From Candidatus Bathyarchaeia archaeon (GTDB taxonomy: Archaea; Thermoproteota; Bathyarchaeia; Bathyarchaeales; Bathycorpusculaceae): a stretch of DNA of 64,000 nt. The stretch spans positions 1 through 64,000 of the forward strand of contig JBEKSS010000007.1 of the NCBI GenBank assembly GCA_049516875.1. Direction: 5' to 3'. A program made the translations under genes and the position numbers. Below, piece after piece: positions 23,647-25,820 of the stretch; position 1 is the first letter of the stretch; each line of letters begins with the position of its first letter. Under the pieces are notes generated by a model. It saw nothing but the letters and a program-made list of their open reading frames with translations, searched no databases and had not been told where the DNA came from.

Positions 23647-24225
23647 ATGACTGAGGAACTGTACGTTTCTGTAAGGGATGATTGGCGTTCCTGGCTCAGA
23701 GAGAATCATGATGTCAAGAGAGAAGTTTGGTTGATCTACTACAAGAAGCACACTGGCAAACCCAGCATCCCGTACGATGATTCCGTCGAAGAAGCGTTGT
23801 GTTTTGGTTGGGTGGACAGTATCGTAAAGAAAATTGACGATGCGAAGTATGCTAGGAAGTTTACATCTCGCAGAAGCAGAAGCAGATGGTCTGAGGCAAA
23901 CAAGAAGAGAGTAGAAAAGATGATTAGCGAAGGAAAAATGACAGAAGCTGGACTTGCAACAATCAGAGAAGCCAAACACAGTGGAGAATGGTTCAAGATT
24001 CCTGTCAGTGTGCACTACAGAAAGAAACTTGAAATTCCTTCATACCTAAAGGATGCATTGGCAGCGAACGAAAAAGCTTCAAACAACTTCAACAAGTTGG
24101 CCAAGAGCTACAAAAGAAACTTCGTAGCGTGGATTGACAGCGCAAAGAAAGAAGAAACACGGAGAAAGCGTCTTGCAGAGGCTATAAAGCTACTAGAGCG
24201 TAATCAAAAGCTCGGAATGAAATGA
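23647..24225 (+). CDS. YdeI/OmpD-associated family protein
   Basis: EEALCFGWVDS, WIDSAKKEETRRKR. Confidence 0.9.
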   Translation: MTEELYVSVRDDWRSWLRENHDVKREVWLIYYKKHTGKPSIPYDDSVEEALCFGWVDSIVKKIDDAKYARKFTSRRSRSRWSEANKKRVEKMISEGKMTEAGLATIREAKHSGEWFKIPVSVHYRKKLEIPSYLKDALAANEKASNNFNKLAKSYKRNFVAWIDSAKKEETRRKRLAEAIKLLERNQKLGMK

Positions 24226-24310: not shown

Positions 24311-24447
24311 TGGCGCCGGGAGTGGGACTCGAACCCGCGCGGCCCCGAAGGGCCACAGGCTCTCAAGCGCACGCGCGCCTCAAGGCCTGCGCATTAATCC
24401 ACTCTGCCCACGGGGTGGCAAGACATGGGTCTAGCCATTATCCCGGC
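24311..24447 (-). tRNA. tRNA-Ser(TGA) with two introns (24409-24439 at position 8/9; 24362-24378 in anticodon loop)
   Basis: Acceptor GCCGGGA/TCCCGGC, encoded CCA, long variable arm, stem CAGGC/GCCTG; removing both inserts gives a normal cloverleaf. Confidence 0.85.
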
Positions 24448-24721
24448 ACATTTTCCCGGCACCAGAAGATTAGCTCGTCTACCCCGTCTTAAAATGTTTA
24501 CCCTAGACAATTCTGATGACTCTTCGGTCTTGAGAGGGTTCGGACGGGCCTGTTGCGAGTTTAGCGCACGCATACAGTTTCTTGTGTTAATACGAGAAAA
24601 CCTCGCACCTTCTTGATGGAGAATCAAGAATGGCATCGGTCATAGCGTTCGCCTGGTGCAAAGGGAATTCAGAAATAGCGATGTTGCGCTTCTACTCTTC
24701 CTCATACTATATTACAGAAAA

Positions 24722-25330
24722 TCAGTCTGTGACATTTTCCTTGCGTTTTGCATGAGTTTCAGCTTCGAAAGCCGCAACACGATCGTCGTTTTCTTCACGT
24801 TCGATCTCCTCAAGCGTGGCCTCCATAAGTCTCTTCATTCTGTGCTCTTCAACTCGTTTCATGATTTCCGCACGCGTCAAGTGTCGAGACTGTGAGTGAG
24901 TGCCTGAAACGCCGTCGAACCATTCACCTCCTAAGTCCAGCCTTCGCTCCGCATTAAGAACCATTGAATCAGCGTTCTCTCGAACCGTCTTTTCATGATA
25001 GTCATCAACGTTCTTAACGCCCACCAGGATTCCTCGCGGATCAAACACTTCAATCGAGCGAAGGCTCCTCTTGGGCCGTATTATGTGGAATGAAGTTTCA
25101 AACCCGCATCCGGGACAGTAGAACCTTATGTTTTGGAACTTCTTATCGTGTCTGAGTCTGAAACTTTTTCCCATGCAGTGTGGGCAACCAGACAGTCCAC
25201 ACTGAGCTAATGCTGGGTTGTTGACACTTGCCCATCTTAGGTATATGGCTTCACGTGAAAAATCATGTTCGATGTTCGGGAATTCGACCCAACGATGCTT
25301 GCGGCTCCTACCACGCTTATGCACACCCAT
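24722..25330 (-). CDS. Zn-ribbon hypothetical protein
   Basis: CPHC...CPGC; start inferred at MGVHKRG. Confidence 0.6.
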   Translation of the reverse strand: MGVHKRGRSRKHRWVEFPNIEHDFSREAIYLRWASVNNPALAQCGLSGCPHCMGKSFRLRHDKKFQNIRFYCPGCGFETSFHIIRPKRSLRSIEVFDPRGILVGVKNVDDYHEKTVRENADSMVLNAERRLDLGGEWFDGVSGTHSQSRHLTRAEIMKRVEEHRMKRLMEATLEEIEREENDDRVAAFEAETHAKRKENVTD

Positions 25331-25742
25331 CAGCACACACACCCATTTCGACTGCCCATCGATACTGCAACTTCTCCATCTGCTCAAGCAGAGTAACGGC
25401 ACACACTCCTGCCTGAGAGACTTTAGGATGATTGAGAATATTAACCTTGAGCGCATCTCTCAACGCACGTCTTGGTGTCGTTAACTGGCAAATCGTGCGC
25501 ACTAAGAACTCCTCAGATTTCGCAACGTTCAGAATGGAACTAAGGATGAAGAGTAACAGCATCGAAGCCGCAGGCAGCTTCATAGTAGCGCCGGAGGAAC
25601 AGGAAGGATCGATACCGTTGACGTTTGAACATCTCAAAGGATATATTGACGGGAATTTCAGACGATAACTATTTATTAGAAATCGTGCCCTTAAAAACCG
25701 AAACCTGCGGCAAACAGGAAAATGCAGAAAGTAACCTAATGG

Positions 25743-25820
25743 GGGCCGGTAGTCTAGCTCGGTTAGGACATCTGCTTGACGTGCAGAAGGTCGCCGGTTC
25801 AAGTCCGGTCCGGCCCACCA
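25743..25820 (+). tRNA. tRNA-Val(GAC)
   Basis: GGGCCGG/CCGGCCC acceptor, TCTGC-TTGACGT-GCAGA, GGTTCAAGTCC, CCA. Confidence 0.96.

Follow-up and report, generated by a model that had tools for sequence, protein, structure and literature searches.

Archaeal tRNA genes with non-canonical or multiple bulge-helix-bulge (BHB) introns, as well as split and permuted tRNA genes, are well described in the available parts of several papers (PMC4090602, PMC4033280, PMC3218864, PMC3293823, PMC8450103). The accessible portion of one review, citing Marck and Grosjean 2003 and Sugahara et al. 2008, places non-canonical introns in Thermoproteales, Thaumarchaeota and other groups, and gives as their positions 20/21, 22/23, 25/26, 29/30, 30/31, 45/46, 53/54, 56/57, 59/60 'etc.', with 3/4 as an extreme (PMC4090602). 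Here, a 64-kb stretch of DNA from a Candidatus Bathyarchaeia archaeon (assembly GCA_049516875.1, contig JBEKSS010000007.1, positions 1 to 64,000; hereafter the window) was analysed for a tRNA-Ser(UGA) gene on its minus strand, in which an intron separates positions 8 and 9. The BHB of this intron is built with the 5′ acceptor strand of the tRNA itself, and a short segment in the leader, which we call the decoy, is complementary to the 3′ acceptor strand. Comparative support for the proposed leader decoy is strong, and folding models support it further.

The gene spans 137 nt (24311..24447, minus strand, as are all features of the locus described below), from G1 (24447) to an encoded CCA (24313..24311). 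Exon 1 (24440..24447) comprises positions 1-8, the 5′ acceptor strand GCCGGGA and U8, which joins G9 directly in intronless orthologues. Intron 1 (24409..24439), 31 nt long and placed between U8 and G9 by a BHB test and RNAfold, ends in six bases that make up a CCCG strand and two bases of the 3′ bulge. Exon 2 (24379..24408) holds positions 9-37, with the D arm, the 5′ half of the anticodon arm and the anticodon UGA. Intron 2 (24362..24378), of 17 nt, lies in the anticodon loop at the canonical 37/38 placement, and exon 3 (24311..24361) continues from position 38 through a long variable arm, the T arm, the 3′ acceptor strand and G73 to CCA. These last boundaries were taken from ARAGORN and, for intron 2, also from orthologues with an uninterrupted loop. 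When both introns were removed in silico by coordinates, ARAGORN reported tRNA-Ser(tga) of 89 nt including CCA. Its cloverleaf has the traits of a class II tRNA-Ser (7-bp acceptor stem, UGA in a 7-nt loop, long variable arm and G73) and one mismatch in the T stem, C50.A64. No split or permuted arrangement was found in the gene, all parts being contiguous, ordered and on one strand within 154 nt. An earlier note on this DNA had proposed the 31-nt insert with its BHB helices, bulges and hairpin, all of which are present at 24439..24409, and had expected a normal serine tRNA after its removal; the resulting U8-G9 junction does match intronless orthologues, while the second, 17-nt intron had been overlooked. 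The locus is almost certainly a real tRNA-Ser(UGA) gene of Bathyarchaeia with an intron at 8/9.

Intron 1 has the layout of an EndA-type BHB, with a 4-bp central helix, two 3-nt bulges on opposite strands and predicted cuts after the second bulge base. In the central helix, C3G4G5G6 pairs with CCCG at all four positions, and the bulges are AUA and UGG. The outer helix of 3 bp is formed by U(-1)G1C2 with G10C11A12. The inner helix has 4 bp past one A.C mismatch and 8 bp in total with an internal U.U, and the intron hairpin was drawn by RNAfold as UGGC.AGAC/GUCU.GCCA; both flanking helices, h and h′, are thus at least 2 bp long in this gene. The U8-G9 junction predicted by splicing is contiguous sequence in intronless orthologues, and 92 of 401 genomes of the class match the intronless pattern. 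Because the BHB uses the 5′ acceptor strand (positions 3-6 in the central helix, positions 1-2 and U(-1) in the outer helix with D-stem positions 10-12), its fold excludes the acceptor stem. The earlier note had recognised this competition, in which both structures need the same strand, and following it up led to the leader segment. Introns next to the acceptor stem pose a folding problem, since the splice signal and the most stable helix of the tRNA need one and the same strand; a leader that occupies the other strand would offer a simple way around it, and this predicts a fixed order of processing.

To place the intron among related genes, Ser(UGA) orthologues were collected and were found in 39 of 41 related genomes. 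Three genomes of the same genus carry the gene at 91-92% identity over its full length, with intron and leader conserved. Among the 40 relatives, the 8/9 intron is present in these three and in four genomes of other genera or families, and U8 and G9 are contiguous in many others. A pattern scan of 185,579 species genomes, whose sole requirement was exon 1 followed by the D arm after a gap of 14-44 nt, returned 71 loci, of which 57 were archaeal. Fourteen scan loci, all but one labelled bacterial, were discarded as chance hits or as ordinary tRNA-Ser genes whose acceptor stem differs and whose upstream match is accidental. The archaeal scan loci minus duplicates and one truncated locus, plus the relatives, gave 58 non-redundant loci: 8 from Bathyarchaeia relatives, 25 labelled Bathyarchaeia or Bathyarchaeota, 19 labelled Nitrososphaerales, Thaumarchaeota, Nitrosocaldus or Nitrosopumilales, and 6 with other record titles. 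As archaeal introns go, the 8/9 intron is of an ordinary kind; its position is unusual but locally common in Bathyarchaeia and Nitrososphaeria, and the impression in the earlier note that 8/9 is not among the common positions does not hold against these 58 loci. A number of Nitrososphaerales-type loci (L037, L046, L047, L049, L050, L061, L074, L077, L090 and L101) apparently carry Ser(UGA) genes with three introns, at 8/9, just past the D arm and in the anticodon loop.

Strict BHB criteria were set as a 4-bp central helix with both flanking helices of at least 2 bp. At the 8/9 boundaries, 41 of the 58 loci have such a structure, compared with 3 of 4756 equal-length windows shifted along the same sequences, and a chance fold at intron 1 is therefore unlikely. 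The central helix is complete (4/4 pairs) in 54 loci and nowhere has fewer than three of four pairs; the outer helix reaches 2 bp or more in 58/58, and the inner helix in 44/58. An alignment was built from 23 Bathyarchaeia precursors, drawn from the 26 of 58 loci with a length of ≤150 nt and an intron of ≥26 nt after L040, L089 and L095 were dropped. In this alignment, 89.3% of cells pair, against 84.7% in shuffles (0/500 reach the observed value) and 32-49% when the partners are slid. In the intron 1 hairpin, both sides have changed in 7 of 8 pairs.

The decoy, UGGUGCCGGGA, occupies -17..-7 (24454..24464) and can form 11 bp with the 3′ end of the gene, UCCCGGCGCCA (positions 66-76, 24321..24311), according to helix scan and folding. 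It is separated from G1 by a 6-nt spacer, AAAUGU (24448..24453), of which U(-1) pairs with A12 and closes the BHB outer helix. For comparison between loci, the longest contiguous helix (Watson-Crick and G.U pairs) between a 40-nt leader and positions 66-76 was recorded. It measured 7-11 bp in all 58 Ser loci with the 8/9 intron (7 bp in 5 loci, 8 in 25, 9 in 8, 10 in 8 and 11 in 12). In 47 Ser loci without the intron it measured 2-7 bp (2 bp in 4, 3 in 9, 4 in 26, 5 in 5, 6 in 2), with one locus reaching 7. The leader element is also absent from Ser orthologues that have an anticodon-loop intron alone.

In each intron-bearing locus the decoy, lying a few bases 5′ of G1, resembles a second 5′ acceptor strand. 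It is not a plain copy of that strand, since it extends into the complement of G73-CCA or of the trailer: it pairs with G73 in 53/58 loci and reaches position 75 or beyond in 31/58. Its variants preserve pairing to the 3′ strand, with G:U in place of G:C at position 70 (7 loci) and 71 (2 loci) and G opposite U66 (3 loci), and a Nitrosocaldus-type decoy, GGCGCCGG, pairs with positions 68-75 and has no GGGA part. The segment is kept across two archaeal classes, although spacer and upstream sequence are unalignable. An origin as a neutral target-site duplication or an integrase att copy was considered and rejected, as the segment is 7-11 nt long and lies 5′ of exon 1, not flanking the intron; its reach into trailer-complementary sequence likewise speaks against a neutral duplicate. 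In L037, L049 and L077, the leader complement is found 20-26 nt upstream of G1, compared with the usual 2-9 nt.

A TATA-like motif was found in 41 of the 58 intron-bearing and 25 of the 47 intronless Ser loci, and its median distance to G1 was 44 nt in the former and 31 nt in the latter, about 13 nt longer with the intron. In the gene studied here, the TATA-like TTTTAAGA was read from the sequence at -47..-40 (24487..24494). Given that it ends at -40, the usual archaeal spacing between TATA element and start would put the beginning of transcription near -17, at the first base of the decoy.

The same coupling was seen in two further tRNA genes of this genome. A strict T-arm and acceptor census of the genome gave 46 rows, of which 6 were dropped as not tRNA-like and 40 were kept; it replaced a looser T-arm census that had returned 288 mostly spurious rows. 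Leader helices were 11, 11 and 8 bp long in three of the 40 tRNA loci and at most 6 bp in the other 37, and these three are the tRNA genes with introns at 8/9 (Ser), 9/10 (Arg) and 10/11 (Gln). The tRNA-Arg(CCU) gene (L135, C3:14666-14768, minus strand) is interrupted at 9/10 by an intron of 28 nt, and 11 nt of its leader are complementary to the 3′ strand and trailer; trailer CUA and leader UAG stand where Ser has CCA and UGG. The tRNA-Gln(UUG) gene (L136, C11:45554-45653, plus strand) has a 24-nt intron at 10/11 and an 8-nt leader complement. Central helices of the Ser, Arg and Gln introns use acceptor positions 3-6, 4-7 or 5-8. Among relatives, the leader helix of Arg(CCU) measured 8-11 bp in 4 loci with the 9/10 intron and 2-5 bp in 15 loci without it; among these controls are same-genus genes, some intronless and others interrupted in the D loop, and a single gene whose intron lies in the anticodon loop, and a locus cut by a contig end was left out. 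For Gln, it measured 7-9 bp in 10 intron-bearing and 3-6 bp in 19 intronless loci. All five genomes of the genus share the Gln(UUG) arrangement, which is also conserved in five other genera. Arg(CCU) differs within the genus, with the 9/10 intron in the genome studied here, no intron in G001 and G004, and a D-loop intron in G002 and G003, a variation that points to fast intron turnover or gene replacement.

We consider it slightly better than an even chance that the leader complement is a general, co-inherited module accompanying every archaeal tRNA intron that takes the 5′ acceptor strand into its BHB (from about 3/4 to 10/11), including those of Bathyarchaeia and Nitrososphaeria. It would act in cis as an RNA chaperone and exon tether, enforce the order of splicing, refolding and RNase P trimming, and share the gains and losses of the intron, as suggested by the variation of Arg(CCU) within the genus. 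If true, this would explain how introns persist inside the most constrained helix of the tRNA, and it would give gene finders a second signature to look for.

Folding predictions were obtained for the precursor with leaders of different length. With 0 or 6 leader bases, RNAfold gave the true acceptor stem and no central helix for the gene studied here; with 16 or more, the 3′ end instead bound the leader, and the intron bound the true 5′ strand, whether the fold was computed at 37 or at 60 °C. When the two states were enforced on the unspliced gene, the decoy state had -82.4 and the acceptor state -71.1 kcal/mol, and after removal of intron 1 the values were -68.2 and -60.9 kcal/mol. Across the 58 Ser loci with their native leaders, the median predicted probability was 0.80 for the central helix and 0.00 for the acceptor stem, the central helix exceeding 0.5 in 38 loci. 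Truncation of the leader after the decoy reversed the medians to 0.00 and 0.98 (central helix above 0.5 in 1/58), and shuffling of the decoy gave 0.20 and 0.53 (14/58).

Sequence comparison and modelling suggest that the leader decoy probably helps splicing by holding the 3′ end. The transcript would begin with the 11-nt decoy, the first part of a leader of about 17 nt. The BHB would form from the intron and the 5′ acceptor strand during their synthesis. As the 3′ strand emerges, it would pair with the decoy rather than invade the BHB, leaving the true 5′ strand free. EndA would then cut both bulges and a ligase would join U8 to G9, and the decoy may also tether the short 5′ exon during cutting and joining. 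After splicing, the freed 5′ strand would replace the decoy in the acceptor stem, and RNase P would remove the leader. Splicing would thus precede 5′ trimming; because U(-1) and the decoy lie in the leader, trimming by RNase P before splicing would destroy both the outer helix of the BHB and the decoy. To the explanation as a whole, a functional single-copy Ser(UGA) gene with a leader of ~17 nt, two introns removed by EndA and a decoy-assisted BHB, we assign a probability of roughly 75%.

Several points weigh against it. We infer that the decoy is transcribed and has a helper role, that the introns are actually spliced, and in what order these events occur. The 58 loci are related to each other, and their counts for this reason overstate independence; the 47 intronless Ser controls are mixed isoacceptors that have the acceptor and D-arm pattern in common. 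In the 23-precursor alignment, both sides have changed in 0/11 pairs of the Ser leader helix, the 3′ strand being invariant, and its support within the alignment consists of conservation and one-sided wobble changes. Shuffling of the decoy alone still leaves those 14 loci with a central helix probability above 0.5. With the native leader, this probability is 0.5 or lower in 20/58 loci, mostly of Nitrososphaeria and with introns of 14-24 nt; most of these introns are very short, and the energy model scores the bulge-helix-loop forms poorly. Even with both introns removed, the decoy helix is still preferred by 4.2 kcal/mol (-56.2 against -52.0 kcal/mol), and the hand-over to the acceptor stem would therefore need tertiary folding or proteins; this hand-over is the weakest step of the mechanism. 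Finally, intron 2 has a relaxed BHB only, with two U.U pairs in its central helix.

At its canonical 37/38 placement, intron 2 has 3-nt bulges AGG and AGA and, read by hand, the central helix pairs C-G, U.U, U.U and G-C. Because CUUGAG is repeated, shifting the cut by as much as 6 nt in the 5′ direction leaves the product unchanged. Checked by hand, no placement from 31/32 to 37/38 gave a strict BHB and none bettered 37/38. Intron 2 would accordingly be classed as a relaxed BHB motif, with its intron status supported by the ARAGORN call and by orthologues that lack it. With intron 1 alone removed, ARAGORN -i proposed Thr(tgt) with a 9-nt intron, a call that was rejected once intron 2 had been placed.

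Among other explanations, the one that fares best accepts the gene and its introns and denies the leader segment any part in splicing. The segment would then be one side of a stem that pairs the 5′ and 3′ ends, for exonuclease protection or as a processing stem like those of rRNA precursors, or a neutral remnant of a duplication. A BHB alone suffices for recognition by archaeal EndA, and the BHB hairpin could form during transcription, ahead of synthesis of the 3′ strand; the link from decoy to EndA cleavage is one that we infer, and the continued preference of the model for the decoy helix after splicing also suits a segment that does not assist. Against this, the segment occurs solely with introns whose BHB uses the 5′ acceptor strand. 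It is missing from Ser genes with an anticodon-loop intron alone and from Arg genes interrupted in the D loop or the anticodon loop. Two archaeal classes have retained it while its surroundings are unalignable, and it continues into G73-CCA or trailer complement outside the 5′ strand, hence is no plain duplicate. We regard this account as unlikely.

We give hardly any weight to a reading in which the upstream copy is the true 5′ exon and a single longer intron, or an additional one, comprises the spacer, the second copy and the 31-nt insert. By eye, the upstream copy is followed by T, as exon 1 is, in 8/58 loci; in the other 50 the next base is not the conserved U8. The Nitrosocaldus-type leader has no GGGA part at all, and only the downstream copy gives the junction of intronless orthologues and lies where the BHB is found.

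Whether the gene might be a relic was judged from copy number, conservation and the output of gene finders. Run on the window, ARAGORN and Rfam (gathering score) missed the Ser gene and reported tRNA-Val(GAC) as the sole tRNA. ARAGORN made no call on the isolated unspliced gene, and the 37 hits of the Rfam tRNA model in the whole genome include none at the Ser locus; the warning in the earlier note that standard finders may miss the gene is thus borne out. The host assembly (2.43 Mb, 20 contigs, 47% G+C) is 97.5% complete. The earlier note had allowed for another, intact Ser(TGA) gene beside a decaying copy, and BLAST with the spliced sequence found no second Ser(UGA) gene in this assembly. 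The remaining serine tRNA genes of the genome have the anticodons GGA, GCU and CGA. The same note had pointed to C50-A64 as a mark of decay, which it is not, as the mismatch is common to all four species of the genus with the gene and the pair varies among relatives. Compared in L001-L004, L009, L016, L025, L041 and L044, pair 50:64 is C.A in this genus and some others, C.U in L025 and L041, C-G in L044 and U-A in most; to judge from these sequences, the mismatch in Ser(UGA) is tolerated. A decayed or non-functional tRNA-Ser copy with a coincidental BHB-like fold is very improbable, since the T-stem mismatch and the failure of standard finders, which would suit it, are set against a sole Ser(UGA) candidate in a nearly complete assembly, 91-92% identity of gene, intron and leader in three other species of the genus, compensatory changes in the intron hairpin, a BHB far above the shifted-window background and a 50:64 pair that varies in relatives with intact genes too.

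The genome also encodes factors that the proposed pathway would use. Two EndA paralogues (PF01974; 101.7 and 77.3 bits; C3:52170-52427 and C1:57467-57721) are encoded in open frames of 190 and 187 aa and could make up an enzyme of the heteromeric (alpha-beta)2 type. RNase P RNA is present at full length (196.6 bits). In a comparison with four public DNA runs, contigs from two other runs, one spanning the whole stretch compared and one covering gene and leader, intron included, show 0 differences, and no intron-less joint was seen in contigs of other public DNA runs. Public sequencing rows listed for the stretch number 22, of which 20 DNA rows from 16 studies contain it; none is RNA.

Gene finding was affected beyond the Ser gene. 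The Arg(CCU) gene was truncated by Rfam and called Gly(acc) by ARAGORN. Since finders miss Ser(UGA) outright and miss, truncate or mis-call Gln(UUG) and Arg(CCU), these archaea, widespread in peat, soil and sediment, have genomes that seem to be without essential tRNAs, and a signature of decoy plus BHB could recover such missed genes. Other labels in the genome also differ from the genes found. A tRNA-Ser(CGA) gene with an anticodon-loop intron (C3:108276-108405, plus strand) is mislabelled Thr(cgt) by ARAGORN, and a locus with a CAU anticodon of Met type (C1:469775-469874, plus strand) is mislabelled Ser(cga). On the minus strand of C1, near 227983, 231247 and 236179, a common 3′ acceptor end and trailer (CCCCCGC-ACCT) follow a T arm. 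The middle place is a tRNA-Leu(UAA) gene, and the other two, which lack a full 5′ strand in their vicinity, may represent partial tRNA copies, for example attachment-site repeats of integrated elements. On the plus strand of C8, near 471 and close to the contig start, a T arm and 3′ acceptor end are identical to those of Gln genes; no matching 5′ strand was found within 330 nt, and the place may be a partial copy or an unusually built gene.

Within the window, the Ser gene sits in a gap between open reading frames at 23647-24225 (plus strand, Pfam OmdA) and 24722-25456 (minus strand). The intronless tRNA-Val(GAC) at 25743-25820 (plus strand), 1.3 kb from the Ser gene, is ordinary.

The intron itself may already be catalogued in databases, since tRNAscan-SE 2.0, by the available part of its description, looks for introns near the ends by lengthening candidates by 60 nt and includes an intron model for Thaumarchaeota. 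The accessible parts of a 2026 Asgard preprint and an Atabeyarchaeia paper report many missed introns and make no mention of the leader element. A full-text literature search, whose reach did not extend to the primary papers of 2003-2011, returned no description of a leader complement to the 3′ acceptor strand. As far as this search reached, the coupled leader decoy would be an undescribed variant of intron presentation.

Compared with known systems, intron 1 is closest to other archaeal non-canonical BHB introns, which likewise have a 4-bp helix between 3-nt bulges, occur away from the anticodon loop and may share a gene with a canonical intron. It differs from them in its position at 8/9, in a BHB that consumes the 5′ acceptor strand and in a leader that complements the 3′ strand. 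In attenuation by terminator and anti-terminator, one strand has two possible partners and a third segment decides between them. The decoy resembles such switches in offering alternative partners for one strand, but no ligand, ribosome or regulatory input is evident here, and excision of the intron would resolve the switch. In split tRNAs (Nanoarchaeum equitans, Caldivirga maquilingensis), as presented in the parts of the papers available, sequences outside the tRNA also pair, keeping the pieces together and building the BHB, and splicing has to come before end maturation (PMC4090602, PMC4033280). In the present gene, by contrast, a single transcript is involved, and the leader pairs with its own 3′ acceptor strand instead of another flank, outside the central helix of the BHB. 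The processing stems of archaeal rRNA precursors, according to the accessible text, are alike in that the 5′ flank pairs with the 3′ flank to close the precursor, in association with cleavage by EndA (PMC7714728). There the pairing of the flanks itself forms the BHB, whereas in the tRNA-Ser(UGA) gene a separate helix would remove the competitor of the BHB.

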